A stretch of DNA of 64,000 bases from an uncultured Candidatus Saccharibacteria bacterium (GTDB lineage: Bacteria; Patescibacteriota; WWE3; UBA101185; UBA10185), in assembly GCA_964385105.1 (NCBI GenBank), contig CAYLMU010000001.1, positions 194,252 through 258,251 of the forward strand, written 5' to 3'. Each line of letters opens with the position of its first letter. Within the stretch, counting starts at the first letter, position 1. Both the position numbers and the translations under genes were made by a program. Below the pieces are notes generated by a model. That model saw nothing but the letters and a program-made list of their open reading frames with translations. It did no database searches and was not told the DNA's origin. Shown piece by piece: positions 3,149 through 62,534 of this stretch.

Positions 3149-5572
3149 TTAAAAAGGTATTAGTTTCCTTGGATCAACTTGACTTGGCATTGGCTCAGGT
3201 TCAGGTTCAGGGTTGTAACCCGCGCGTTCATTAATAAACTCTTCAACTTCGGCTACCGGTGTACCGTACCGCTCTCTAGAATCTTTGCGAATTCTCTCGG
3301 CAATCTCATCACTTTTTACAGTTTGATTTACAACATCCCAGTCAACCATAGCCGAAAAGGGAACAGTAGGGTGGCCTTTAACCAGCAATCTAATATAGTA
3401 ATTTCCTACCGGAAGGTTAATAAGGTCACTTTGTGTAAAAATTGGTTCAAATTGTTGTTCAAGGTATTCAGCATCATCAACACCAACTCTAAATGATACT
3501 GTTGTACCCACATTACCAAACACAGCTTCTTTTATTTCCTCCTGTAGTTGGGCTACAAACTGGTGTGCCACCGTTAGATTTAGTTTATATTTTCTTGCCT
3601 CGGATAATATTGTTGCAAAGTCATCTGTGGCAAAATTTTGAAACTCATCAACATATAGGTAAAAGTTAGGAAACTCTTCTTTTCCAAGCAATGAGGCACG
3701 AGCTAAAGCTGCAGATAGAATTCTAGGTACAATCAGTAATCCCAAAAAGTTTGAGTTTTCTTCACCGATTTTACCTTTTGATAAATCAACGAGTAATATT
3801 TTTTTATCACGCATCACCTGGTGTAAATTAAACGACGATTTCTTCTGACCAATAATATTACGCATTGTTCTTTCAGTAACCAGTCTGTCAAATTTAGACA
3901 CAAAATACCCCATCATTTCACCTTTTCTATTCGCTGTGGTCTTAGCCATTTCATCAGTCCAGTAGCGTTTTACAAGAGGGTCTGTGATTTTTGGTAAAAA
4001 TTGCTTAACGTACTCTTCATCAATCAGTAGCCTTAAAACATCCACCATGGTTGCATCCGGGTCAGACATTGCAGTTAACATAACATTTCTAATTGACCTC
4101 TCAAGTTGTGGACCCATAATACCTTGGCGATTCGGGTCATAAAGTTTATATAGCAATCCTATAAAAGAGTTAATAAGCATGTGTTTTTCTTCTTCTGTGT
4201 GAGCTTCAAGCATGTTTAACCCTACCGGATTCTCGGTGTCTGATACATCAAATAAAATAACATCATCTACTCTATGCTCAGGTATTTTTTTAAGTATGTC
4301 GTCAATATCACTTCCGTGAGGGTCGATAAATGCCAACCCTTCGCCGTTATAAATATCCTGAATTGCCAAGGTTTTCATAAATTCAGATTTACCTGTACCC
4401 GTTTGCCCGATAATATACATGTGCCTGGTTCTATCATCGGCATTCATAAATAACTTTTTCTCGGTATTTCTATAAACGTTTTTACCCAAATATAAGCCTT
4501 CTTCCGGAGTATTTGAAGGTGCAGGGGCTTTTCTGGCGGTTAACCACAAAATGTTTGGAGTTTGAATTTCTTTGCTTGGGAAGTGAAATATAGTGGCCAT
4601 TTCTTCAATGTTGAGAACCGTAATATTGCTGTATAGAACAATATCAAATATAGGAATCTGAAACGTTCGCGGTACCATTTTTCTATAAATAAAATTGCTG
4701 ATAAGTTTTTTTGTAAAAATGATTTTTCTGCGTCTAAAGTTACTATATTTTACATTTGTAAATTGTTCAAATGAGGTGGCTACATTATCAATATGATTTC
4801 GAGCCGAAATTTTGTCATCTGAAATTGCAACTATTCTGATTTTAAGTTCAAAGCCAGGTTTAGATGTTTTTTCTTCAACTCCTTCTAAAAATGCGGTATC
4901 AACCCTGATGTTTTTTTCAGGATTTGAGCTTTTATTATGAATGTGGCCTACAAATGCATTTCCTGCTCTTCTCCAACCACTGCCGGCCGGGGAAATTAAA
5001 TATTGTATTGCAACAACTTCTGTTTCTTTTAGTTTGCTTAATGACGATGTGACACTGCTTAATGGGTCTGTGGCTTCCATACTTTTGTATGTTTTAATAG
5101 GATAATATGGTGGTCCGCTTAGTTTTAGCTCAACAATCTCAGTAACTTTTCCTCGATCCCATATTTCGTTAGGGTCTATAACATCAATTTCTGCAGTAGG
5201 ATAAGCGCCATTTATTTGTTTCTCAACAAAATTAACCAGCTCATCAGGTACTACTACATAAAATCCAATACCTTCTTTTTTTGAAACTATTTCAAATGAA
5301 ATTCGCCGTTGTCCTTTAAATAGAGACTGAAAAAAACTTCTTCTAAAACCCATGAGACTGGCAAATAAATGTTCTGCTGCCTCTATTTCATATTCGTTTT
5401 GCGGGGGAAGTTTTATATGTAAAAAAGTCAGTTTATACTGGTGTGACTTAATATAGCTGTTTCTTCTCCAATATATAATTGAGTATATAAGCCATGAAAA
5501 AAAGCCAATTAAAAAGACAATATAAAACAAGAGCCAAAAAATGTTGTATAACAGCTGGCTAAAGTTCTCCAT
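3149..5572 (-). CDS. Membrane-anchored VirD4/TraG/TrwB-like (type IV coupling protein family) P-loop ATPase, 807 aa
   Basis: N-terminal TM helix (LLYNIFWLLFYIVFLIGFFSWLIYSIIYW). Walker A HMYIIGQTGTGKSEF followed by FIDPHGSDID. Walker B FYLYVDEFQNF followed by KYKLNLTVAHQFVAQL, resembling the T4CP/VirD4 xxQSxxQL motif. The C-terminus is acidic Pro/Glu-rich (PEPEPEPMP). A VirB4- or HerA/FtsK-type ATPase cannot be excluded from sequence alone. Confidence 0.6.
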   Translation of the reverse strand: MENFSQLLYNIFWLLFYIVFLIGFFSWLIYSIIYWRRNSYIKSHQYKLTFLHIKLPPQNEYEIEAAEHLFASLMGFRRSFFQSLFKGQRRISFEIVSKKEGIGFYVVVPDELVNFVEKQINGAYPTAEIDVIDPNEIWDRGKVTEIVELKLSGPPYYPIKTYKSMEATDPLSSVTSSLSKLKETEVVAIQYLISPAGSGWRRAGNAFVGHIHNKSSNPEKNIRVDTAFLEGVEEKTSKPGFELKIRIVAISDDKISARNHIDNVATSFEQFTNVKYSNFRRRKIIFTKKLISNFIYRKMVPRTFQIPIFDIVLYSNITVLNIEEMATIFHFPSKEIQTPNILWLTARKAPAPSNTPEEGLYLGKNVYRNTEKKLFMNADDRTRHMYIIGQTGTGKSEFMKTLAIQDIYNGEGLAFIDPHGSDIDDILKKIPEHRVDDVILFDVSDTENPVGLNMLEAHTEEEKHMLINSFIGLLYKLYDPNRQGIMGPQLERSIRNVMLTAMSDPDATMVDVLRLLIDEEYVKQFLPKITDPLVKRYWTDEMAKTTANRKGEMMGYFVSKFDRLVTERTMRNIIGQKKSSFNLHQVMRDKKILLVDLSKGKIGEENSNFLGLLIVPRILSAALARASLLGKEEFPNFYLYVDEFQNFATDDFATILSEARKYKLNLTVAHQFVAQLQEEIKEAVFGNVGTTVSFRVGVDDAEYLEQQFEPIFTQSDLINLPVGNYYIRLLVKGHPTVPFSAMVDWDVVNQTVKSDEIAERIRKDSRERYGTPVAEVEEFINERAGYNPEPEPEPMPSQVDPRKLIPF

Positions 5573-15348: not shown

Positions 15349-16068
15349 TCAACCATTTACTTGGCTACTTATCCCGGTTAAAAGCGCCTTTGCAGCTTTA
15401 GGATTAGGTGTAAGATCTAAGTTAAGAGATTCTTTAAAAACCAACATGCTTAAATTTTCAGCATATGTGTCAATAATATTAACCACGCCAAATCTTTGGT
15501 TTTTATTGGTATTATCAAAATTTATTATCTTTGCTCTATGAATCTCATCTTTTAAGTTGTTGTATATCGGACCCATGTCGAGCAATTCCTGAGCACCAAC
15601 CGTAATAATCAAATCAAAATCATAGCCTGTTACTTTAGCTTTAACTCTGTCTGTGGCAAAATCTTTTGGTACAGGACCAAGTTTTAAATAAAGCGTTTCG
15701 TTATTATGTGAATATTGGGCTTTAGCGGCCGGTGTGTTTGAATAATCTATTGCAACCATTAAATATCTTTCATTAAGCTCTGTTGTAATAAGTTCATCCT
15801 CAATAACACCTGCACAATCCTCAGGGATTTTACCCGAATAAATAAAACGGATGTTTTTTTGCATATTAGTCTCGGAATCTTCATATTTTTGCTTTAACAT
15901 GTAAAACAAACCGGCTGCGGCACAAAAAGAATTTCCGCGTGCGGTTTTTGAAGGTATGATAGCAATTTCCCTTGCATCATTTATTAAATTTACTACCTGT
16001 TCATTATCGTAGTTACTTACTTGCATTTTATTTAGTTGAGCAGAAAATAATTTGAAACTATTGTGCAA
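15349..16068 (-). CDS. DHH-family (NrnA/CnpB-like) protein with degenerate catalytic motifs; N-terminal DHH domain only (239 aa)
   Basis: Collinear with NrnA motifs but the key residues are substituted. IAIIPSKTARGNSFCAAAGL replaces the H-x-x-PDGDA-GS motif. LMVAIDYSN is the motif III equivalent. AKIINFDNTN sits where KIDHHPN (the DHH motif) occurs. NPKAAKALLTGISSQ resembles NTKAAELIYAGI. The infB-[DHH]-rpsO-pnp synteny is known from Actinobacteria/Firmicutes. Confidence 0.5.
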   Translation of the reverse strand: MHNSFKLFSAQLNKMQVSNYDNEQVVNLINDAREIAIIPSKTARGNSFCAAAGLFYMLKQKYEDSETNMQKNIRFIYSGKIPEDCAGVIEDELITTELNERYLMVAIDYSNTPAAKAQYSHNNETLYLKLGPVPKDFATDRVKAKVTGYDFDLIITVGAQELLDMGPIYNNLKDEIHRAKIINFDNTNKNQRFGVVNIIDTYAENLSMLVFKESLNLDLTPNPKAAKALLTGISSQVNG

Positions 16069-18937: not shown

Positions 18938-18959
18938 AAAAAAGGCGGGAATTCCCACC
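18938..18959 (-). terminator. Candidate intrinsic terminator within the nusA 5' leader (minus strand: GGUGGG-AAUU-CCCGCC + U6)
   Basis: The plus strand reads aaaaaaGGCGGGAATTCCCACC. On the minus strand this is a GC-rich hairpin (6 bp including one G.U pair, 4-nt loop) followed by six U residues, about 130 nt upstream of the nusA ATG. Confidence 0.4.
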
Positions 18960-19051
18960 TTTGACACTAATACTTTTACTTTTCTAACGAGTTAAAATTA
19001 GCATAATTTATAGGGTATGGCAAGTATACATGTAAATAAGGCCTATAGTGA

Positions 19052-19080
19052 TTGACCTATGTTTGTTAGTCATATATAAT
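19052..19080 (+). promoter_or_regulatory. Sigma70-type promoter TTGACC-N17-TATAAT driving the three-gene plus-strand cassette
   Basis: attgacctatgtttgttagtcatatataat. The -10 is about 58 nt upstream of the ATG at 19139, which is preceded by a GAGGTGA RBS. Confidence 0.5.
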
Positions 19081-19138
19081 TACCCCGAATTTTTATTAAT
19101 CGCGGATTTCCGCAATCAAGAATTAGCGAGGTGATAAG

Positions 19139-19471
19139 ATGGGAAAATGGGCTATGTTTCCGAATCCGGACGAGCAGGAAAGTCTACTGAACTGGGATGT
19201 ACAAATGCTGACTCAAGCACTTCTAGAGAGCGATGATGGGAAACTTACATTAGTTGCTGCTGCAGCATATGATTTATTTTACGCTGCGAAAATGGAAGAG
19301 AAAGCTAAAGGAATTCTATTAGCTGCTGTATCAATTAAAGGCATCCAATCAGTCGTACAAGCCATATCTGAGCAGGTGGCATTCCGGATTCACTGGGACG
19401 GTCAAAGTGAAGAAGAACAACGTGATTTTTTGGAATTTTGTGAAAAAACCTTGAATACTCCAATAAGTTAA
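19139..19471 (+). CDS. Hypothetical protein (110 aa, predicted helical); first gene of the inserted cassette
   Basis: ORF with a good RBS (gcGAGGTGAtaagATG). Codon usage is GC-richer than neighbouring genes (ctg, cag, gag and cgg codons). Confidence 0.45.
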   Translation: MGKWAMFPNPDEQESLLNWDVQMLTQALLESDDGKLTLVAAAAYDLFYAAKMEEKAKGILLAAVSIKGIQSVVQAISEQVAFRIHWDGQSEEEQRDFLEFCEKTLNTPIS

Positions 19472-19545
19472 TTGAAGTAAGGTTATGAAACGCTACCTGT
19501 ATCAAAAAAGAGACGAAATCACGACCATTAAAAAGGAGTAATCGC

Positions 19546-19836
19546 ATGAAATACTTGAGACTCAAAAATTTAGATGGGGATTTAACTTTACCACAAGTTG
19601 TTGAACTAATTAGATTTTATGAATCAGATGATTTCCATCGTATGAGCGAGAAACAGAGACTCGAGGTAAAAATTCGGCGGTTTATAACTTTTGGTATAGG
19701 AGAAAATGAGAGAAGGTACTTTGGCCCACAGTTGGGTGGACCCATAGTTTCGGAAACTCTCAGAATTCCCAAACGCTTTAGGGAAGACGTCTTGAAAGAA
19801 CTTAAAGCTCTCAAAATTGAGCTTGAGAAGATCTAG
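19546..19836 (+). CDS. Hypothetical protein (96 aa)
   Basis: ORF preceded by AAGGAG (aaaAGGAGtaatcgcATG). Same atypical codon usage as the flanking cassette genes. Confidence 0.45.
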   Translation: MKYLRLKNLDGDLTLPQVVELIRFYESDDFHRMSEKQRLEVKIRRFITFGIGENERRYFGPQLGGPIVSETLRIPKRFREDVLKELKALKIELEKI

Positions 19837-19888
19837 TGCAATAATTGCCGCTTTGGGAATGTAGTTTATTTCTGAGGCGGCATTTTTC

Positions 19889-21181
19889 TTGTATACTATG
19901 TATATGATTGAATCAGAAATCCCCAACAATTACGGTACACATGAAATAAAAGTCGAAAAAGAGAGGCTGGGACCTTTAGAAATTGTTCATTTTGAAGGAA
20001 CTGTTGAAGAAACCCATAAGAGGCTTGGTGAAACAGTAAGAGACCAGGTGTGGTTGACGGCCGCGCGCAAATTAGAAGAATACGATTCATATGAAGATTT
20101 TTTAACAGATTTGCAAATGATGCACAGATGTCTTGAAGTTGTAAAAGACAAAAGCAATGATACAGAAATTGACCTACCAATAAGAAATGCAGTTAAAGAT
20201 TATGTTACTGCTTTACAATCCTGGGCAGGAGGTGCTTCATTACTTAATATTAATCACGAATATATTAAAAGGTTCGCTCAAGAATTCAATTTTGAAACCT
20301 CAGGTTCTTCTGAAGTTTTAGCATATTGGCTTCAAAATGATAATGTTGGATGTCAAAGCGGTATGTATAGAAAAGATGATGGTAATATTTTGGTTTGGCA
20401 TACAGAAGAAGATGTTGAAGATGAACCTGGCTCCAGATTTGATGCTATTAGAATTGGTCAATTTAGTTTAATCGGAGAAACTGGTGAAAGAGATGATAGA
20501 TATGCTTTAATTTATCCTGATTTACTCCCTGGTCCTGCAGCAGGTTTTGCACAAAACTTTTTTTATTCAATAGATTTTCAGAGCTTTCGACCCAATGAAC
20601 AGCCAAGTATTCTAGCAAATACTGCTGTTTGGGTTACATGGAAGCTTGGAGAAAGCAGAGATCCGGCAGAGGTGCTTAGAGCTCTAAGTCCCTATTATGA
20701 TGGATATACACTTAATACAGTACGTCGGTTGCCGGATGGTACACTGGAGTCAAAGAAATTAGAATTTGCGCATGGTTTAATTGCAGAATATAAATTAAAT
20801 GAAAATCCGGGAAGTAATCTTGTTTCAGCAAATGTTACTGAAGAGAACTCAGCAACCGAGCCAGCGCTCGATGAAATTGATGATGAAGAAAGTAACTATT
20901 ATGCAGGTAGAGTAAGAAGAACTAGACGTGCTCTTAAACTAATTGAGTCTACTGAATCAGGTGTTACACTTCAAACACTTCAGAGGATGCTCGCGTTTAG
21001 AGTAGGGAATCAGCCCCTTAAAGGCAGTGACGAGATGGAAAATGCTGCAAATTCAAATGTGGATGTTAAAGCTAAATTTGCTGTAATGTTCACACCTAAC
21101 GGTATGCAATTGGCTGTTTCGGCAGGTCCCGGAATAAGAAATGAAGAAGTTACTTACTTTGAATTTCAGATTTCTAATTAG
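19889..21181 (+). CDS. Hypothetical protein (430 aa) with a possible Cys/His catalytic pair (VGCQSGMY ... LVWHTEEDVEDE). Putative thiol hydrolase/transferase-like enzyme of unknown family.
   Basis: Long ORF. A conserved-looking Cys is followed 16 residues later by a His flanked by acidic residues. No confident family assignment is possible by eye. Confidence 0.5.
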   Translation: MYTMYMIESEIPNNYGTHEIKVEKERLGPLEIVHFEGTVEETHKRLGETVRDQVWLTAARKLEEYDSYEDFLTDLQMMHRCLEVVKDKSNDTEIDLPIRNAVKDYVTALQSWAGGASLLNINHEYIKRFAQEFNFETSGSSEVLAYWLQNDNVGCQSGMYRKDDGNILVWHTEEDVEDEPGSRFDAIRIGQFSLIGETGERDDRYALIYPDLLPGPAAGFAQNFFYSIDFQSFRPNEQPSILANTAVWVTWKLGESRDPAEVLRALSPYYDGYTLNTVRRLPDGTLESKKLEFAHGLIAEYKLNENPGSNLVSANVTEENSATEPALDEIDDEESNYYAGRVRRTRRALKLIESTESGVTLQTLQRMLAFRVGNQPLKGSDEMENAANSNVDVKAKFAVMFTPNGMQLAVSAGPGIRNEEVTYFEFQISN

Positions 21182-21252
21182 AGAATGTGCTTTAAACGCC
21201 TTTTATGCGGTAACGGTTGGTGTTTGCCATAATTATCTTAACTTCCTTTATT

Positions 21253-22185
21253 CTAAAGGCTTTCTCCAAACTCTTCCAACAATTTCTTCTGCTTTCGGTT
21301 TAGCCTTTTTGGAATTTTAACAATAATTTGCACTATCACATCGCCTTGCCCGCCGCCACGTAAACCGGGCATACCCTTGCCTTTGAGTCTAAATTGCGTA
21401 TTTGGCTGAGTACCTGCCGGAATTTTTAATTTTGCAGTTCCAAGCCCTGTTTCAGATTTTATGTCTACAACCGGAACTTTTATAGTATCTCCAAGTGCAG
21501 CTTGAACAAAGTCGATTTCTGCAATTGCTCCAAAATGGTCGCCTGCTCGTTGTGTAAATTCTTTTGGAGTTGGAACTCTAACTGTAATATATAAGTCACC
21601 GTTTGGTGCTCCGTTTGGCCCGGGCATGCCTTTTTCTGCAAATTTAATTTCTGTACCGTGGTGAACTCCGGCCGGGATTTTAATTTTTACCTCGCCGCTT
21701 TCTACTCTTATGGTTTTTTCGGTTCCCTTTACTGCCTCGGCAAAGTTTATATGCATTTCATAAAACAAATTTTTGCCTTTACGGGTTCTTTGCTGACCTC
21801 CAAAACCTCTAAATCCAAAAAATTCTTCAAAAATGTCAAAAGGATCAAAACTTTCACCGCTTCCACCGGAACTATAAGAGTATGTAAATGGGCCCCATTG
21901 ACCTTGACTTCCGCCAAACCCCCCAAATCCGGAATTTCCTGCTGCACCTTGACCCATTCCTGCGTGGCCGAATTGATCATACATTTTACGCTTTTGCGGA
22001 TCTTTAAGAACTTGATATGCTTCGTTAATTTCTTTAAAACGTTTTTCTGCGGTGGCTTTGTCACTTTTTGCCACCATATCAGGATGATGTTCTCTTGCTA
22101 AGTTTCTATAAGCTTTTTTTATTTCATCATCTGAAGCACCTTTTGGAACTCCCAGAATGTCGTAATAGTCTTTGTTGTTTGCCAT
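21253..22185 (-). CDS. dnaJ: DnaJ-class co-chaperone, type II (J domain + G/F region + C-terminal substrate-binding domains; no CxxCxGxG zinc-finger domain)
   Basis: J domain DYYDILGVPKGASDDEIKKAYRNLAREHHPD with HPD motif. Gly/Phe-rich linker. No Cys repeats. Last gene of the hrcA-grpE-dnaK-dnaJ arrangement (dnaJ is separated from dnaK by an intervening plus-strand gene). Confidence 0.8.
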   Translation of the reverse strand: MANNKDYYDILGVPKGASDDEIKKAYRNLAREHHPDMVAKSDKATAEKRFKEINEAYQVLKDPQKRKMYDQFGHAGMGQGAAGNSGFGGFGGSQGQWGPFTYSYSSGGSGESFDPFDIFEEFFGFRGFGGQQRTRKGKNLFYEMHINFAEAVKGTEKTIRVESGEVKIKIPAGVHHGTEIKFAEKGMPGPNGAPNGDLYITVRVPTPKEFTQRAGDHFGAIAEIDFVQAALGDTIKVPVVDIKSETGLGTAKLKIPAGTQPNTQFRLKGKGMPGLRGGGQGDVIVQIIVKIPKRLNRKQKKLLEEFGESL

Positions 22186-22261
22186 AGCGGAATAATTTTA
22201 GCAGTTATATTGTATGTTTGCCAGATTTTGCTGAAGTTAAGTTGTGGGGTAAAATTGGGTA

Positions 22262-22990
22262 ATGTCACTTGAATCTGCCCCTGAAACAAGCAACGAAATA
22301 AAAGAGCCAGAATTAGAACCAGATTCCCCACGCGACTCTGAAGTTTTTTCACTTGCCGGATTTTTCGAACTTTCTCCCGATGAGAATCGACCTAAATTAG
22401 AGCTTGATGAAACCCCTGCTACACCTGAAGACTTAAAAGGTACAGTAATAGAATATAAAGATCCTTTAATAGAATTCAGAAGGCCTACGGTTGCGCCCGA
22501 AAAAATGACTCCGGACGATGCCAGACAGATGGCTGTTACACTAGTTGAAAATGCCTTGGAAAACGATTTATCAAATCGCGAAATGCTTGAAAAAATTTTA
22601 GCGGTACTTAACGAAACAGATAAAAGCCCAGAAAACTTAGATTTGGCAGAAGCATTTTTTTCCGGAATATATTACTCAGCTATTGATAGATATACACAAA
22701 AAGAATCTATGAGGTTACATGTTTCCGACCTTGTTGCCGGTGGAGGTGATGTGCAGACAAGCGAATACAGACAAAATCGGCAAGATAAAAATCCTGATCA
22801 AATCGAATTTACAGACGACTATGCAAATAGTTTACAACAACCTGCCAATAAAGAAGCACAAATAAAACTTAAAGAAAGGGAATCTGATATAGCTTACCGT
22901 GATGCACAATATACACAAAAAATGCTTGAATTTGTAAGAAGTCTTAAAGAACGTACTATCGAAACCCAATCCATTCAAACTCTTATTTAA
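22262..22990 (+). CDS. Hypothetical acidic protein (242 aa)
   Basis: ORF divergent from dnaJ. Asp/Glu/Pro-rich. No motif recognised. GC-richer codon usage than its surroundings. Confidence 0.4.
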   Translation: MSLESAPETSNEIKEPELEPDSPRDSEVFSLAGFFELSPDENRPKLELDETPATPEDLKGTVIEYKDPLIEFRRPTVAPEKMTPDDARQMAVTLVENALENDLSNREMLEKILAVLNETDKSPENLDLAEAFFSGIYYSAIDRYTQKESMRLHVSDLVAGGGDVQTSEYRQNRQDKNPDQIEFTDDYANSLQQPANKEAQIKLKERESDIAYRDAQYTQKMLEFVRSLKERTIETQSIQTLI

Positions 22991-23150
22991 GCCCTTAACA
23001 AAAACAAGACGTGTGAGATAGCAATATATGTTGATCCGATATTAAGGCGTAGGATATTAATACAGCACGCCAAAAGATATGATATAGAGAACCAAGATGC
23101 AGATTATTCGCCGAACCTGGTGGTTAGGGTCACATATATGCAAAATAAAG

Positions 23151-25049
23151 TTATTCTTCGTCTATAACTTCACCTTCAACAGTGTCATCATCATTTGAAT
23201 TTTCATTTCCACGGGCATCGCCCTCAGTTCCGCCTTCAGGTGAAGTACCTTGTGCCCCCTGATCATACATATATTGTCCGATTTTTTGCATTTCTAAACC
23301 AAGTTCTTCGGTTTTTTTCTTTAGTTCTTCGGTTGAAGCTGTTGGTAATACTTCACGTAAATCTTTAATTTTTGCTTCAATTGAGCTTTTAACATCAGCC
23401 GGAACTTTGTCACCTGCATCACGTAAAGATTTTTCGGCTGTATGAATTGTGGCATCGGCTAAGTTTCGTGCGTCTACCTGTTCTTTTTTCATTTTGTCTT
23501 CTTCTGCGTGCCGTTCTGCATCTTTTACCATTTGTTCAATTTCTTCATCACTTAATCCCGTGCCGCCTTGAATTGTGATTTTTTGTACTTTTCCTGATGC
23601 TTTGTCTTTTGCGCTTACATTTATTAATCCATTTGCATCTATATCAAAAGTGACTTCAACTTGAGGAACGCCTCTTGGTGCAGGAGGTATTCCGTCTAAG
23701 ATAAATCTGCCCAAACTTTTGTTATCTACTGCCATTTCACGTTCACCCTGTAATACGTTTATTTCTACCTGTGTTTGATTATCTGCAGCTGTACTAAAAA
23801 TCTGGCTTGCTGACGTTGGAATAGTAGTGTTTCTTTTTATGAGCGGAGTCGCCACACCGCCCAAAGTTTCAATACCCAAAGTTAAAGGTGTAACATCAAG
23901 CAAAAGCACATCTTTTACGTCACCGCCCAAAACTCCTCCTTGAATTGCAGCACCGATTGCTACAACTTCGTCAGGGTTTACACCTTTGTGAGGTTCTTTA
24001 CCAAAGAAGTTTTTTACAACCTCATTTACTTTTGGAGTTCGGGTCATTCCGCCCACCATAACAACTTCATTAATTTCAGAAACTGACACTCCTGCATCGT
24101 CAAGTGCTTTTTTAACAGGAATTAGTGTTTTTTGTATTAAATCATCAACAAGTTGTTCATATTTTGCACGGGTTAGTCTTATATTCAGGTGTTTTGGCCC
24201 TGATTGATCTGCTGTTATAAAAGGAATATTTATTTCAGTTTCTAGTGTGCTTGAAAGCTCTATTTTAGCCTTTTCTGCAGCATCCTTTAACCTTTGCATT
24301 GCCTGTCTGTCATTTGCAAGGTCTATACCGCTTTCTTTTTTAAACTCTTCAATAAGATGGCTAATTAAGACTCTATCAAAATCATCTCCTCCAAGGTGTG
24401 TATCACCGCTTGTTGATTTAACCTCAAAAACTCCATCACCGACTTCAAGTACCGATACATCAAACGTACCTCCCCCAAGGTCATAAACAACTATTTTTTC
24501 GTTAGCTTTTTTATCAAGACCATAAGCTAAAGATGCAGCTGTTGGTTCATTTATAATTCTTTTTACTTCAAGACCGGCAATTTGACCTGCTTCTTTTGTA
24601 GCATTTCTTTGTGCATCGTCAAAGTATGCCGGAACAGTAATTACAGCTTCAGTTACTTCGTGTCCTAAAAATTTTTCGGCGTCGCTTTTTAACTTTCTTA
24701 GAATCATTGCTGAAATCTCTTGCGGAGTATACACTTTACCTTCAACCTCAACTGCAGCCATACCGTTTTTTCCCTCAACAATTGTATATGGATAATCGGT
24801 TTTAAGTGCTTTAACTTCGGGCGAGTCATATTTCATACCCATCAGTCTTTTTACACTGAATATAGTATTTTTTGGATTTACTACTTGTTGTCGCTTAGCG
24901 GGTACACCAACCAGGTTTTGTGCCGGTGCCACTACAGAAGGTGTGGTGTTATTGCCTTCTGCACTGGGTATAACTTTGGGATTTCCACCCTCCATTACGG
25001 CCATTGCGCTATTTGTTGTTCCTAAGTCTATTCCTATAATTTTTGCCAT
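23151..25049 (-). CDS. dnaK: Molecular chaperone DnaK (Hsp70)
   Basis: [18 protein letters not shown]; [12 protein letters not shown]; IVLVGGMTR-like motifs. C-terminal EEVD-like acidic tail (GEVIDEE). Start assigned to the conserved [10 protein letters not shown] Met (the ORF track begins 27 nt upstream at 25076). Confidence 0.9.
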
Positions 25050-26266: not shown

Positions 26267-26293
26267 CTATCACTATGATAGCACGAGTGCTAA
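26267..26293 (-). promoter_or_regulatory. CIRCE-like inverted repeat (HrcA operator candidate) abutting the hrcA start codon
   Basis: In the hrcA orientation it reads TTAGCACTC-gtgctatca-TAGTGATAG. The left half-site and the 9-nt spacer match the CIRCE consensus TTAGCACTC-N9-GAGTGCTAA exactly, and the right half matches 6/9. It ends 1 nt before the hrcA ATG. Confidence 0.5.
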
Positions 26294-37780: not shown

Positions 37781-39880
37781 ATGGCGACATTAAAAGAATT
37801 GCGTGAGATTCACTTACAGAAATTAAACAGGCTAAAAGAGCTGGGAATTGATCCGTTTCCTGCACGTGTTAAAAAAGATTTTGAAAATGCACATGTAACT
37901 TCTAATTTTGAAGAATTTGAAGGTAAGACTATAAGTTTGGCGGGCAGAATTGTTTCATACAGAGAACATGGAGGTCTAGTTTTTATAGATATTAAAGACC
38001 AGTCGGGAAAAATTCAGGTTTATGTAAAAAAAGAAACACTTAAACCCACAAATGCTAAGCAACAAACTTTAGGGTTTGAAGATTTATCTTTATTGGATGT
38101 TGGAGATTATATTGAAGTAACAGGTGAGATAACAAAAACAAAAGCAGGTGAGATTTCAATAATGCCGGGTGGGTTAAGAATTTTGTCAAAGACTTTAAGG
38201 CCGCTACCTGAAGAGCTAAATAACAAAGAAACCAGAATGAGAAGGCGTTATGTTGATACTAAAGTTAACGAGGATGTTTTTGACAGATTTGTTCGAAGAG
38301 CTAAATTTTGGGAAGCGCACCGTAAATTTTTAAACAGTAAAGGGTTTTTAGAAATTAATATTCCTGTTTTAGAAAATATTCCGGGTGGGGCAGATGCAAC
38401 ACCTTTTGTTACACACATGGATGCAATTGACCAGGACTTTTTCTTAAGAATTTCACAAGAATTGTATTTAAAGAGACTTGTAGGAGGAGGTTATGAAAAA
38501 GTTTATGAAATTGGCCCTAGATTTAGAAATGAAGGATTGTCTGATGAACATTTGCCCGAACACATTGCTATGGAATTTTATTGGGCATATGCAAGTTGGG
38601 AAGAAGGAATGAAGCTAATTCAAGATTTATTTAACTATATTCTTGATGAAGTTTATGAAGGTAAAAGAAAGTTTTCAATTCGGGGTTTTGACGTTGATTT
38701 TACCGGAGATTGGGAAGTTATCGATTTTGCCGAAGTTATGAAAGAAAAATACAAAATTGATGTTCATAGTACCACGGTTGATGAAGTAGCAAAAATTTGT
38801 AAACAAAATGGAATTGAAGATGATTTTGCACAAAATCTGCATAGAGGAATTGATAATCTTTGGAAAAATTTGCGCCGTGAAATTGCAGGACCGGCGTTTT
38901 TAGTTAATCATCCAAAATATTTATCTCCGTTGGCTAAAGCAAAGGCGCATGAACCGCATGTTACCGAACGATTTCAGCCGATTATTGCGGGTAGTGAACT
39001 TGGTAACGGCTGGTCTGAAATTAATGACCCGGTCGATCAACTTGAACGGTTTAAAGAACAACAAAATTTGCGTGATGCAGGTGACGATGAAGCACAATGG
39101 CTAGATATTGATTATGTTGAAATGCTTGAGTATGGAATGCCTCCTACTTTTGGTTATGGTCATAGCGAACGTGTTTTTTGGTTTTTAGAAGATGTAAGCG
39201 CACGTGAAGGGGTTCCGTTTCCTCAGTTAAAGCATGTGGTAGATGACACAACATTAGAAATATATAATTTACCGCGTCAAAACACACTGCTTGCTATAAA
39301 CCCAAACTTAGATGATATCAATGAAAACGGCAATTTACCGTCACGGGAAGAGGCAGAATTTTTGCTAAATAAACATGTTAAAGACGACTATCAAAAATTG
39401 CACGCAAAAATGGTTGCATCAGCTTTAGAACAATATGCCGGGAAATTTAAAGCTAATAATGAGTTATGGTTTATAGCAGGACTTTTGCACGACCTGGATT
39501 ATTTTGAGTATCCCGATGAACATCCGAAAAAATCACTGGAGTGGTTTAAAGAAAAAGAGTACTCGGAAGCTTTAATGCATGCAATTGCTGCACATGCATA
39601 CCAAAGAACCGGCGTGGAGCCAAAAACAAAACTTGCAGCAGCTCTTATTGCTACGGATGAACTTTCAGGATTGTTGTATGCTTATTCGCTAATGCGACCG
39701 GAAGGTTTTAAGGGAATGAGTGCAGGCTCAGTAAAAAAGAAATTTAAAGATAAAGCATTTGCCCGAACCGTTGACCGAAATGACGTTTTATACGGCATAG
39801 AAAAACTTGGTGTGGATTTTGATGAGCATGTAAATTTTTTGATTAGTGTTTACAGTGAAATAGATGAGTTAAAAAAGTAA
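37781..39880 (+). CDS. lysS: Lysyl-tRNA synthetase (class II) fused to a C-terminal HD-domain phosphohydrolase (~200 aa)
   Basis: The N-terminal ~500 aa carry an OB anticodon-binding domain and class II motifs (FLEINIPVLE; RISQELYLKRL; GSELGNGWSEINDP; GMPPTFGYGHSERV). The C-terminal extension carries an HD signature: H(AKM)...LLHDLDY...HAIAAH...DELSG. Confidence 0.85.
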   Translation: MATLKELREIHLQKLNRLKELGIDPFPARVKKDFENAHVTSNFEEFEGKTISLAGRIVSYREHGGLVFIDIKDQSGKIQVYVKKETLKPTNAKQQTLGFEDLSLLDVGDYIEVTGEITKTKAGEISIMPGGLRILSKTLRPLPEELNNKETRMRRRYVDTKVNEDVFDRFVRRAKFWEAHRKFLNSKGFLEINIPVLENIPGGADATPFVTHMDAIDQDFFLRISQELYLKRLVGGGYEKVYEIGPRFRNEGLSDEHLPEHIAMEFYWAYASWEEGMKLIQDLFNYILDEVYEGKRKFSIRGFDVDFTGDWEVIDFAEVMKEKYKIDVHSTTVDEVAKICKQNGIEDDFAQNLHRGIDNLWKNLRREIAGPAFLVNHPKYLSPLAKAKAHEPHVTERFQPIIAGSELGNGWSEINDPVDQLERFKEQQNLRDAGDDEAQWLDIDYVEMLEYGMPPTFGYGHSERVFWFLEDVSAREGVPFPQLKHVVDDTTLEIYNLPRQNTLLAINPNLDDINENGNLPSREEAEFLLNKHVKDDYQKLHAKMVASALEQYAGKFKANNELWFIAGLLHDLDYFEYPDEHPKKSLEWFKEKEYSEALMHAIAAHAYQRTGVEPKTKLAAALIATDELSGLLYAYSLMRPEGFKGMSAGSVKKKFKDKAFARTVDRNDVLYGIEKLGVDFDEHVNFLISVYSEIDELKK

Positions 39881-59765: not shown

Positions 59766-62534
59766 ATGAATTCAAAGAACTTTTTGTCCTCTTTATTGAA
59801 TGTTAATTATTGGCTGCTCACTGCAGGTATGAATTTTGTAATCTCAACATTAGTACTGCTTGGTATGTTTTCGTTTGGCATGTTTAATGCAGGTACAACC
59901 CTGGGTACAAGCACGGTGACTTTGAGCCCACGACAGGACACAACTGTAAAAGAAGATTATGCCACAAGAAATTATGGATCCGATTCCGAGCTCATTTCAG
60001 ACGGAAAACCAAAAAGAATTGCCTATTTACAATTTGATCTTTCAAGTATTAATCGCTCACAAACCATAACAAGTGCTGTTCTTCGAGTAAGAACAACATC
60101 AAACGCTGAATCAAGGGATGTAAGGAAGAATATTAGGTTGGTAACAAACAACAGCTGGAACGAGTCAAGCATGACTTGGAGAAACAGACCTTCAGTTGGA
60201 ACAAGCATTGGATCATTGCGAACTTCAGTGAGGGCTAATCAAACTTATGATATTAATCTAAGTGCTGCACATGTACAACCATATGCAGGTAGAACTTTTT
60301 CTTTGGCTATAGATGACACCTCAAACGGATCTATACTCACATTAAACTCAAAAGAAGCACGTAGTGGCTCTCCTCAGTTAATACTAACTGTTGAGACGCC
60401 TGATGTTAAAAATACACCGCCTGTTGCCAGAATTAATACAAACACAACTTCCGGAAATGCTCCTTTAACTGTTGAATTTGATGGAAGCAGGTCATCTGAT
60501 GCTGATGGGAATATTGTTGCTTATTCATGGAATTTAGGTGATGGAAATACGTCAAACGATCAAAAAGTCTCACACACTTATGTAAAATCAGGTGAATATA
60601 GAATTCAGCTTACAGTAACTGATAATAGTGGAGCTACGGCTTCAGCCAACACAACTATAAATGTAACAGAATCAGGGGGCGGAGATTCCGGTGGTAGAGG
60701 AAATGTTATTTTAACTCCAACTGATGACGCGCATGTGAAACAGTCTTATGGAGGAAATAGAAATTATGGTACTGATGCAACACTGGAATCCGATCAAATA
60801 CCAGATTCAGGATCAGCACGAGTTACTTACATTAAATTTAACCTCACACCTTATGCAAATGCCACACTAAATTCAGCCAGATTGAGATTGACTGTGAATA
60901 ACGGCTCATCTGATAGACAAAATATAAAGTTAATTGGTGATAATAACTGGAATGAAAATTCAATAACTTATCTAAACAGACCTTCAACAAGTTCCGCACA
61001 GATAGTTACAACGCTTAATAGTGTATCAACTAATCAAGTGCTGGATTTGGATTTAACAACAAATCTGCGGTCATATTTGGGACGTACTGCAACTATTGTT
61101 GTAGAAAATACCGGATCTGACAGAATGGTTTTGAATTCAAAAGAAGCAGGAAATGTTGTATTACGTCCTCAACTAACATTAAATATTGGCGGAGACACAG
61201 TACCTCCTCCACCGTCTAACCAACTTCCAACAGCAAGAATTACGGCAAATCCTGTAAACGGAGAAGCACCTTTAGCTGTGACATTCAATGGTTCAGGTTC
61301 AACAGACCCGGATGGAAGTATTGTTGCCTACTCATGGAATTTTGGAAACGGCTCACGTGCAACGGGAGCTTCAACATCACATACATATAATGTAGTTGGA
61401 AATTATACGGCAGTACTAACTGTTACAGATAATGCCGGAGGTCAGGCATCAGCAAATGTAACTATAAATGTTACGTCTACCACACCACCACCGCCTCCGC
61501 CACCACCTCCTCCCCCTCCTCCGCCACCACCGGGATCAACGGGCGGAATCTGGATTTCACGAGATGAAGTTAGAGCTTTACCAACAACAGGTGCTGCAAG
61601 TGCCGGATGGCAGAATGTGTTGACAGCTGCAAGCAATAACTTCAGTAGACCAAATATTGCAGATCAGAACGATCCGGATGATGTGTATGCATACGCAGCA
61701 GCCCTTGTTTATGCAAAAACCGGAGACGAAAGTTACAGAACTAGAGTAGTTGAAGCTATACGCAATGCAAGAGGAACCGACAACGGTGCAAGTATTTTAT
61801 CAGTTGCACGAAATATTCAGGCTTTGGTTATAGCTGCGGATTTAATAAATCTATCGGATTTTCCTTCTGAAGATCAGGCATTTAGAAGCTGGATTTCTAA
61901 GATGAGAACTACAGTTTACTCGGGAGCCGGACCGTCACTCTCTATAGTTACATGTCAAGAGCGAAGACCGAATAATTTCGGTACACACTGTGGCGCAGCA
62001 CGAATGGCTATAGATTTATATATTGGCGATACCGCTGATTTTAATAAAGCCGTTAATATCTATAAAGGTTATTTAGGTGATCGAAGCGCATACACCGGTT
62101 TTGTGTTTGGAGAGCTTTGTTACGCACATAGCCAAACACAACCTGTAGGTATTAATCCACCGGGTTCTACATTAAGAATTGGCAATAACGCCTATAATGC
62201 TGATGGTATATTGCCTGATGACCAAAGAAGATCAGGCTGCCCAGCAGAATATCCATATCCTGATGAAAACTATGTATGGGAAGCTTTGCAAGGTGTGACA
62301 GTACAAGCTGAAATATTACACAGAAGAGGTATGGATTCTTATAACTGGTCAAGTAGAGCATTATATAGAGCAGTAAACTGGCTCCATTCGGTAAATGGAT
62401 TTCCTGCAACAGGCGATGACCGATGGGTACCATGGATTATTAATAAAAGATACAGTACTTCGTTTCCAGCCCAGACTCCGGGGTCAGTGTCGGTTGGTAA
62501 AGGAATGGGATTTGCAGAATGGACACACAGATAA
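59766..62534 (+). CDS. Large secreted/surface protein: signal/anchor sequence, 2x [DNRLRE-like carbohydrate-binding-type domain + PKD domain], poly-proline linker, C-terminal alginate-lyase-like (alpha/alpha toroid) domain
   Basis: N-terminal hydrophobic segment. Two copies of ...YLQFDLS...LRVRT...NNSWNESSMTWRNRPS / ...YIKFNLT...LRLTV...DNNWNENSITYLNRPS, which is the DNRLRE-type signature. Two PKD-like units (PLTVEFDGSRSSDADGNIVAYSWNLGDGN...; PLAVTFNGSGSTDPDGSIVAYSWNFGNGS...). A run of 16 Pro codons. The C-terminal ~390 aa carry an NNFGTH motif reminiscent of the lyase NNHSYW motif (weak). Confidence 0.7.
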   Translation: MNSKNFLSSLLNVNYWLLTAGMNFVISTLVLLGMFSFGMFNAGTTLGTSTVTLSPRQDTTVKEDYATRNYGSDSELISDGKPKRIAYLQFDLSSINRSQTITSAVLRVRTTSNAESRDVRKNIRLVTNNSWNESSMTWRNRPSVGTSIGSLRTSVRANQTYDINLSAAHVQPYAGRTFSLAIDDTSNGSILTLNSKEARSGSPQLILTVETPDVKNTPPVARINTNTTSGNAPLTVEFDGSRSSDADGNIVAYSWNLGDGNTSNDQKVSHTYVKSGEYRIQLTVTDNSGATASANTTINVTESGGGDSGGRGNVILTPTDDAHVKQSYGGNRNYGTDATLESDQIPDSGSARVTYIKFNLTPYANATLNSARLRLTVNNGSSDRQNIKLIGDNNWNENSITYLNRPSTSSAQIVTTLNSVSTNQVLDLDLTTNLRSYLGRTATIVVENTGSDRMVLNSKEAGNVVLRPQLTLNIGGDTVPPPPSNQLPTARITANPVNGEAPLAVTFNGSGSTDPDGSIVAYSWNFGNGSRATGASTSHTYNVVGNYTAVLTVTDNAGGQASANVTINVTSTTPPPPPPPPPPPPPPPPGSTGGIWISRDEVRALPTTGAASAGWQNVLTAASNNFSRPNIADQNDPDDVYAYAAALVYAKTGDESYRTRVVEAIRNARGTDNGASILSVARNIQALVIAADLINLSDFPSEDQAFRSWISKMRTTVYSGAGPSLSIVTCQERRPNNFGTHCGAARMAIDLYIGDTADFNKAVNIYKGYLGDRSAYTGFVFGELCYAHSQTQPVGINPPGSTLRIGNNAYNADGILPDDQRRSGCPAEYPYPDENYVWEALQGVTVQAEILHRRGMDSYNWSSRALYRAVNWLHSVNGFPATGDDRWVPWIINKRYSTSFPAQTPGSVSVGKGMGFAEWTHR
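61485..61532 (+). repeat. Low-complexity CCN tract encoding 16 consecutive prolines (inter-domain linker)
   Basis: ccaccaccgcctccgccaccacctcctccccctcctccgccaccaccg. The antisense reading gives poly-Gly. Confidence 0.9.

Follow-up and report, generated by a model that had tools for sequence, protein, structure and literature searches.

A probable cysteine N-terminal nucleophile hydrolase with C45-like precursor architecture, encoded between nusA and dnaJ in an uncultured Candidatus Saccharibacteria bacterium

The DNA analysed (the window) is a stretch of 64,000 nucleotides from an uncultured Candidatus Saccharibacteria bacterium (assembly GCA_964385105.1, contig CAYLMU010000001.1, positions 194,252 to 258,251 of the forward strand). 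It carries four plus-strand open reading frames (ORFs), named here genes A to D. Gene A (19139..19471) encodes an acidic protein of 110 residues (isoelectric point, pI, 4.4) and is preceded by a GAGGTGA ribosome-binding site. Gene B (19546..19836) encodes a basic protein of 96 residues (pI 9.5). Gene C (19889..21181), the main subject of this study, encodes 430 residues from a TTG start; other gene callers begin it at an ATG at 19898 (427 residues) or 19904 (425 residues). Its product is probably the proenzyme of a cysteine N-terminal nucleophile (Ntn) hydrolase resembling the fungal acyl-CoA:isopenicillin N acyltransferase (IAT) of peptidase family C45. Gene D (22262..22990), located between dnaJ and dnaK, encodes an acidic protein of 242 residues (pI 4.4, 21% Asp+Glu). 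These are the sole plus-strand genes inside a minus-strand run that spans 388-30292 and includes pnp, rpsO, a DHH-like gene, infB, nusA, dnaJ, dnaK, grpE, hrcA, lepA and murJ. A preliminary description of the locus, made from the letters alone, had listed genes A, B and C, with their isolated orientation, and a divergent acidic gene; the four ORFs are found as described. It had also stated that the cassette splits dnaJ from dnaK: genes A, B and C actually lie between nusA and dnaJ, and only gene D separates dnaJ from dnaK. An independent assembly (L139, run SRR9016296) is 100% identical across positions 19407-24438 of the window, so the gene arrangement is not a misassembly.

A sigma-70-type promoter (TTGACC-N17-TATAAT, 19052..19080, plus strand) agrees with the consensus at 11 of 12 positions. 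It is one of three sites with at most one mismatch in the window, where 0.86 are expected by chance, and all three (3/3) are located upstream of genes. It is kept in position, as TTGCCT-N17-TATAAT, in a related metagenomic locus (L001), which also has about 110 nt of upstream sequence in common with the window. This promoter, already proposed in the preliminary description together with the good Shine-Dalgarno sequences that are indeed present for A and B, would drive A and B, and C through read-through. A terminator/attenuator-like hairpin followed by a U-run (19846..19890, plus strand) lies between B and C: a 16-pair stem, then TTTTTCTT. The 3' arm of the hairpin includes the GAGG located ahead of the TTG start of C. 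Because of this hairpin, C is probably expressed by read-through or regulated separately. The folding energy is -25.9 kcal/mol (z = -4.7) in the window and -23.6 kcal/mol (z = -3.5) for the L001 counterpart (L001 4895-4945), the stem interior of which is different; in both, the hairpin is followed by UUUUUCUU. A conserved TATACT, 0-7 nt ahead of the candidate ATG starts of C, follows the hairpin and may reflect regulated read-through or a leaderless transcript.

The other side of the cassette belongs to nusA. The feature had been taken to start at 18938. That position lies outside the cassette and belongs to a conserved nusA-leader hairpin (GGTGGG-AATT-CCCGCC then T6, 18938..18962, minus strand). 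In 7/7 aligned relatives (L001, L059-L064), including those devoid of the cassette, this hairpin and its T-run precede the nusA start by about 60-130 nt. Upstream of the hairpin lies a conserved promoter-like site (TTGCCA-N17-TAATTT, 18995..19023, minus strand), the putative nusA promoter, which is placed back to back with the cassette promoter and whose aligned columns are kept in relatives as TTGATT...TAAATT. The hairpin is probably an attenuator or a terminator: it could be a transcription attenuator of the nusA leader, or a former dnaJ terminator. Autoregulation of NusA is known from other bacteria. Since hairpin and promoter-like site are both conserved in relatives, the cassette is bounded by the dnaJ stop codon on one side and by the nusA promoter and leader on the other.

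Related loci were gathered from metagenomes by NusA, and the window genes were mapped onto them. Relatives with 50-73% NusA identity have lepA-hrcA-grpE-dnaK-dnaJ-nusA-infB-rpsO-pnp on one strand and are devoid of the cassette. In three of them (L060, L061, L064), nusA directly follows dnaJ with a gap of 145-180 nt. The dnaJ-nusA spacer contains a 74-residue ORF in L062, an NYN-domain gene in L059 and, in L065 and L068, opposite-strand genes for small membrane proteins that take up about 2 kb. B and C are found in this spacer only in the window and in L001 (identities to the window: NusA 81%, DnaJ 78%, C 56%, B 32%); gene A is carried on roughly 400 nt of additional sequence, not present in L001. 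The insertion is real and lineage-specific, and predates the split from L001. C is host-typical in codon usage and common to both loci, hence the insertion is old. The common ancestor of the window and L001 organisms would have received C, with B ahead of it, in the stretch that separates the dnaJ stop codon from the nusA promoter; A would have been added later, or lost in L001. Gene D would be an independent orphan of the dnaK-dnaJ spacer. Marks of a recent island were searched for in the window: no integrase or transposase gene and no tRNA gene was found, and flanking direct or inverted repeats are only chance-level matches of 14-24 nt. The presence/absence pattern among relatives is that of a genomic island, but C and D are host-typical, which does not fit a recent one. 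The C-dnaJ spacer weakly resembles the 5' ends of nusA and dnaJ, a likeness judged to be due to chance. Unrelated membrane-protein genes of 54-127 residues, on the opposite strand, occupy the dnaK-dnaJ spacer of relatives. The comparison thus shows that the dnaK-dnaJ and dnaJ-nusA spacers recurrently gain genes in this lineage (L059, L061, L062, L064, L065, L068).

The locus had been described as a compositionally atypical, horizontally acquired module. Its lineage-specific insertion is borne out, whereas the atypical composition does not hold for the main gene. The GC content of the window is 36.7%, and the two 1-kb bins over the cassette have 37.8% and 37.5%. The codon usage of each gene was compared with that of 3000 length-matched segments from 42 host genes; the GC-rich codon share refers to the codons named in the preliminary description (host value, 5.0%). 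Gene C (GC 0.373) has a codon log-likelihood z of +0.5, a third-codon-position GC (GC3) of 0.226 (z = -0.9) and 5.1% GC-rich codons. The values for D are z = -0.3, GC3 0.237 (z = -0.6) and 5.8%. Those for A are z = -2.2, GC3 0.312 (z = +1.2) and 9.2%, and those for B are z = -3.1, GC3 0.347 (z = +1.9) and 11.6%. C and D are host-typical; only A and B, each about 100 codons long, deviate, and mildly. The GC-richer codon usage attributed to the cassette is thus weakly present in A and B and is absent from C and D.

None of the four proteins has a significant match in Pfam, NCBIfam, PADLOC or PHROGs; for the 430-residue product, this agrees with the earlier statement that it belongs to no recognised family. 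Gene A is an orphan, with no family match and a 90%-identity cluster of one member. The product of B is predicted to be helical and to end in a coiled-coil-like segment. A 101-residue protein at the same position of L001 (32% identity) is its sole homologue; a search of 5.8 billion proteins returned the self match only, and the single-sequence AlphaFold2 model of B (pLDDT 58.7) is unusable for a fold search. The homologue search with D also returned only itself, without any family match; D is a separate insertion, not linked to A-C. That A and B are paralogues is not demonstrable (BLASTP E = 0.021, hhalign probability 0.1%).

Gene D cuts dnaJ off from hrcA-grpE-dnaK, and a promoter-like site of dnaJ itself lies at 22224-22195 (minus strand). 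Immediately upstream of hrcA is an inverted repeat resembling CIRCE (CTATCACTA-N9-GAGTGCTAA, 26267-26293; 3 mismatches to the consensus, 0.02 expected by chance), so HrcA probably controls the hrcA-grpE-dnaK operon. This operator was found upstream of hrcA only, and none is near the cassette.

The small proteins had been regarded as partners of the large one, possibly within a toxin/effector-immunity or anti-phage defence cassette in which they would neutralise or regulate the enzyme. Such a cassette would account for small orphan genes beside an enzyme in a variable genomic spot and for the patchy distribution of the C family across phyla. It would also be in line with a weak PADLOC match of B to PDC-S15 (E = 0.006, 14 bits) and with the presence of a STAND-like ATPase and a HigB/HTH pair in the vicinity of one C homologue. 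The PDC-S15 match, however, falls in the coiled-coil tail and fails correction for four queries, and no PADLOC or PHROG match at E <= 0.1 exists for A, C or D. No A- or B-like neighbour is found beside C in 53 reference genomes carrying C homologues; outside the window, B accompanies C only in L001, and A is missing even there. In addition, the conserved terminator-like hairpin parts B from C, C has neither a signal peptide nor a secretion-associated domain, the locus has no mobile-element genes or flanking repeats, and the viral fold matches are only generic giant-virus amidases. A system of PADLOC-DB combines a significant component match with conserved co-occurrence; the locus shows neither. 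This interpretation is very improbable, and the proposal that A, B and C form one functional unit is not supported (A absent from L001, B found only there, hairpin between B and C). The fallback offered in the preliminary description, a niche-specific enzyme, fits the data.

Relatives of gene C were obtained from the 5.8 billion proteins: 81 proteins of about 400 residues, none with a Pfam domain, labelled "hypothetical protein" wherever source records name them. When 72 + 21 relatives were scanned singly against sequence-family models, no match was found (E <= 0.1 / E <= 0.01). The models of Peptidase C45, PF03417 (AAT) and NCBIfam C45 do not match the C protein even at E <= 1. The profile of the C family gave 262 matches at E <= 0.001 among 1.84 billion cluster representatives, including 155 at E <= 1e-30, and only noise among PDB sequences (hmmsearch; OspC at E = 0.28). 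By these searches the C family is small and merges into no large family, and its profile does not reach the large C45 family.

The link to other enzymes comes from structure prediction. The AlphaFold2 model of C, built from 72 relatives, has a pLDDT of 92.3 and a pTM of 0.92. The Foldseek comparison with the IAT structure 2x1c gives E = 3e-11 and TM 0.61/0.72. The model has the four-layer alpha-beta-beta-alpha core of Ntn hydrolases. A conserved Cys155 is placed at the start of the first core strand, as is the nucleophile throughout the Ntn superfamily. As in C45 precursors, there is a Gly-Cys site and an alpha part packed on the beta core, and the whole alpha + beta precursor architecture superposes on the IAT precursor. 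The confident model and the Foldseek match together lead to the proposal that C is an Ntn-hydrolase-fold protein with a C45-type two-part precursor. C is thus quite probably an unnamed member of the Ntn superfamily, whose closest structural relative is peptidase family C45 (fungal IAT, insect Tan).

Residue conservation was counted in a 204-sequence alignment of the C family. Cys155 (codon 20351-20353) is kept in 193/193 sequences and the preceding Gly154 in 182/193. His171 (codon 20399-20401) is kept in 194/196, Glu173 in 195/196 and Glu174 in 192/193. Asn315 (codon 20831-20833) is kept in 192/199 and Arg341 (codon 20909-20911) in 188/198. The most distant members retain the Cys, the His and the Glu-Glu pair. 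The Cys...His pair noticed in the preliminary description, within the motif VGCQSGMY...LVWHTEEDVEDE, is therefore a family-wide feature. In the model, Cys155 directly precedes strand 156-161, and His171-Glu174 are in the next strand (167-174); this predicted position of Cys155 is the standard one for an Ntn nucleophile. An hhalign alignment with IAT (query 100% identical to 2x1d_A), which is not significant (1.2% probability), placed G154-C155 on IAT G102-C103 and N315 on IAT N246. In bile-salt hydrolase, a canonical Arg and a canonical Asp occupy the positions matched by His171 (Cys+16) and Glu174 (Cys+19). An invariant acidic cluster (E173, E174, D175, D185, D229) suggests, speculatively, an amine- or cation-bearing substrate. 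A hydrophobic N-terminus is found in 0/162 full-length members, hence the enzyme is taken to be cytoplasmic.

The most fitting role for Cys155 is that of N-terminal nucleophile in an Ntn hydrolase that processes itself, rather than that of one half of a papain-like Cys-His dyad. The 430-residue precursor would cut itself between Gly154 and Cys155 into two chains that would stay together: a helical alpha chain of about 18 kDa (1-154, predicted 17.9 kDa) and a beta chain of about 31 kDa (155-430, predicted 30.9 kDa). The freed alpha-amino group of Cys155 would activate its own thiol, which would attack the amide bond (or acyl-CoA thioester) of a small substrate. The resulting thioester intermediate would be stabilised by Asn315 as oxyanion hole and resolved by water or by an acceptor amine. 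Self-cleavage, chemistry and residue roles are all deduced from the family. Self-cleavage is likely, and the one argument for it is the Gly154-Cys155 motif, whose Gly is kept in 182/193 sequences. IAT processes itself at such a Gly-Cys site (Gly102-Cys103), which is also conserved in Tan, the NBAD/carcinine hydrolase of insects (PMC1285064).

Several points weigh against this assignment. No sequence-profile method (Pfam, NCBIfam, PDB hmmsearch) ties C to any Ntn family, and the hhalign comparison with IAT stays at the 1.2% given above, so that superfamily membership depends on a predicted structure. The roles given to H171, E174, N315 and R341 come from sequence register, spacing and secondary structure, not from geometry; self-cleavage and catalysis stay predictions. 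A His at the position of the canonical Arg is unusual and could mean a different chemistry. The genes around C vary from one genome to another and offer no hint of a substrate in the case of the window.

The unusual His also underlies a different reading, according to which C does not cleave itself. Cys155 and His171 would form a papain-like dyad, or Cys, His, Glu and Glu would form a metal or cofactor site; this would make C a new catalytic type or a TANGO2-like binding protein. The replacement of the canonical Arg by His at Cys+16, followed by the invariant E-E-D run, is compatible with this reading, as are TANGO2 (NRDE family) among the fold matches and the frequent location of C beside a DUF362 gene. 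It nevertheless leaves aside a Gly-Cys junction conserved exactly as in self-cleaving C45 enzymes (PMC1285064), the superposition of the whole alpha + beta precursor on that of IAT, and the retained oxyanion-hole Asn and Arg. It is considered decidedly improbable.

Genomes with matches to the C family belong mainly to Chloroflexota (Anaerolineae). Others belong to Saccharibacteria, Magasanikbacteria, Sorangium, Minicystis, Pirellulales and Poribacteria. A neighbour-joining tree places the proteins of the window and L001 inside a mostly low-GC clade, sister to Chloroflexota clades; 5/6 other loci of this clade have 39-46% GC (L002, 55%), and one Saccharibacteria metagenome-assembled genome is included. 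Within the clade, C is located beside dinB, after an ATP-grasp gene or beside an MFS transporter gene; these varied places fit occasional transfer or relocation.

A DUF362 (PF04015) gene, the product of which is presumably an iron-sulfur-type protein, adjoins C in 14 Chloroflexota loci (L005, L008, L009, L012, L015, L022, L026, L030, L035, L039, L050-L052, L056), either upstream in the same orientation or downstream and convergent. This adjacency may reflect a functional link. In L141 (611-1636) and L045 (ending 2 nt before C), a Ddl-type ATP-grasp ligase gene (PF07478) lies 1-2 nt upstream of the C homologue. Another ATP-grasp ligase gene is about 5 kb from the homologue in L003/L006, a Saccharibacteria genome (L003 703-2957). 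This proximity in candidate-phyla genomes raises the possibility that an amide ligase is paired with an amidase.

The same neighbours are relevant to the reaction direction. C could be a biosynthetic acyltransferase, carrying out an IAT-like acyl transfer from an acyl-CoA or a peptide to an amine, with an amide-forming or redox partner encoded elsewhere. The best structural match of C is indeed an acyltransferase. The ATP-grasp genes, the DUF362 genes in their two arrangements, and the radical-SAM-like and STAND-type regulator genes that adjoin C in some genomes would provide plausible company. Yet no single neighbour is conserved across the C family, and of the ATP-grasp, DUF362, methyltransferase, epimerase, YkgJ-like, creatininase and PhzF genes that accompany C in other genomes, none was found in the 64-kb window. 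Furthermore, Ntn enzymes of this clan are mostly hydrolases. An acyltransferase is thus unlikely, although it deserves some weight. A combined proposal appears improbable: C would be a new Ntn catalytic variant (His + Glu-Glu for Arg/Asp; an uncleaved dyad or a metal/cofactor site), perhaps acting in an ATP-grasp/DUF362 amide make-break cycle on a cationic metabolite. If true, ATP-grasp ligases in candidate-phyla bacteria, or DUF362 proteins in Chloroflexota, might be partners of C in a new amide make-break cycle. The self-processing cysteine Ntn hydrolase remains the preferred assignment.

Other features of the window are as follows. A 239-residue gene with a weak DHH-domain match (E = 0.008; 15349-16068, minus strand) lies between infB and rpsO, where rbfA/truB are expected; it is conserved in L001 (75%) and L059 (39%). 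The IF2 encoded in the window is short; together with the low GC, a TraG-like gene and the clade of C, this points to a candidate-phyla (Saccharibacteria-like) bacterium as the probable source. A class II (Asp/Lys/Asn-type) tRNA synthetase with a C-terminal HD domain, an unusual fusion, is encoded at 37781-39880 (plus strand). A 922-residue protein with CBM96, PKD and alginate-lyase-like domains is encoded at 59766-62534 (plus strand) and has an unusually high second-codon-position GC (0.507). A protein of 807 residues resembling the TraG/VirD4 coupling protein is encoded at 3149-5572 (minus strand). The latter two may reflect a surface-attached or host-associated lifestyle. Scans of the 64-kb window for tRNA genes and Rfam families (gathering threshold) gave 0 matches, despite dense housekeeping genes.

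If the assignment of C is correct, a family without any sequence-level link to others joins the well-studied Ntn-hydrolase superfamily. It would be a new and rare family of cysteine Ntn hydrolases resembling C45, with His and Glu substituted in the canonical active-site set. The very confident model and the signature (G-C-Q-(T/S)-G, 11 residues, W-H-T-E-E-D) make it a well-defined biochemical target. An accessory amidase kept in a low-GC, presumably reduced candidate-phyla genome may point to a salvage or host-interaction reaction.

Among known enzymes, penicillin V acylase and bile salt hydrolase (C59, Pfam CBAH) and the C69 dipeptidases are much weaker structural matches to C. They have no long alpha pro-region because their Cys is exposed by removal of a short leader or of Met1. 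Acid ceramidase (ASAH1) and N-acylethanolamine acid amidase (NAAA), both of C89, are self-cleaving alpha/beta precursors with a Cys nucleophile, as is predicted for C. They have no sequence-level similarity to C, which, in contrast to them, has neither a signal peptide nor a lysosomal context. The catalytic set of acid ceramidase is Cys143, Arg159 (+16), Asp162 (+19), Asn320 and Arg333 (PMC5915598). Its register is kept by spacing, not by 3D superposition: C143/R159/D162/N320/R333 would correspond to C155/H171/E174/N315/R341 of C, with His for Arg at +16 and Glu for Asp at +19 (PMC5915598).

The closest known systems are IAT (PDB 2X1C/2X1D) and Tan of Drosophila (C45, PF03417). Sequence identity of C to them is only 10-11%, and the C family is bacterial (Chloroflexota, candidate phyla) and probably cytoplasmic. 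The alpha part of C is about 50 residues longer than that of IAT, and the motif that follows the nucleophile is W-H-T-E-E-D in C and N-W-D-F in IAT. The chain sizes are nonetheless similar (IAT, 11 + 29 kDa; C, predicted about 18 + 31 kDa). The Asn of C aligns with IAT Asn246, and in both enzymes a Gly-Cys junction precedes the first beta strand of the catalytic core.

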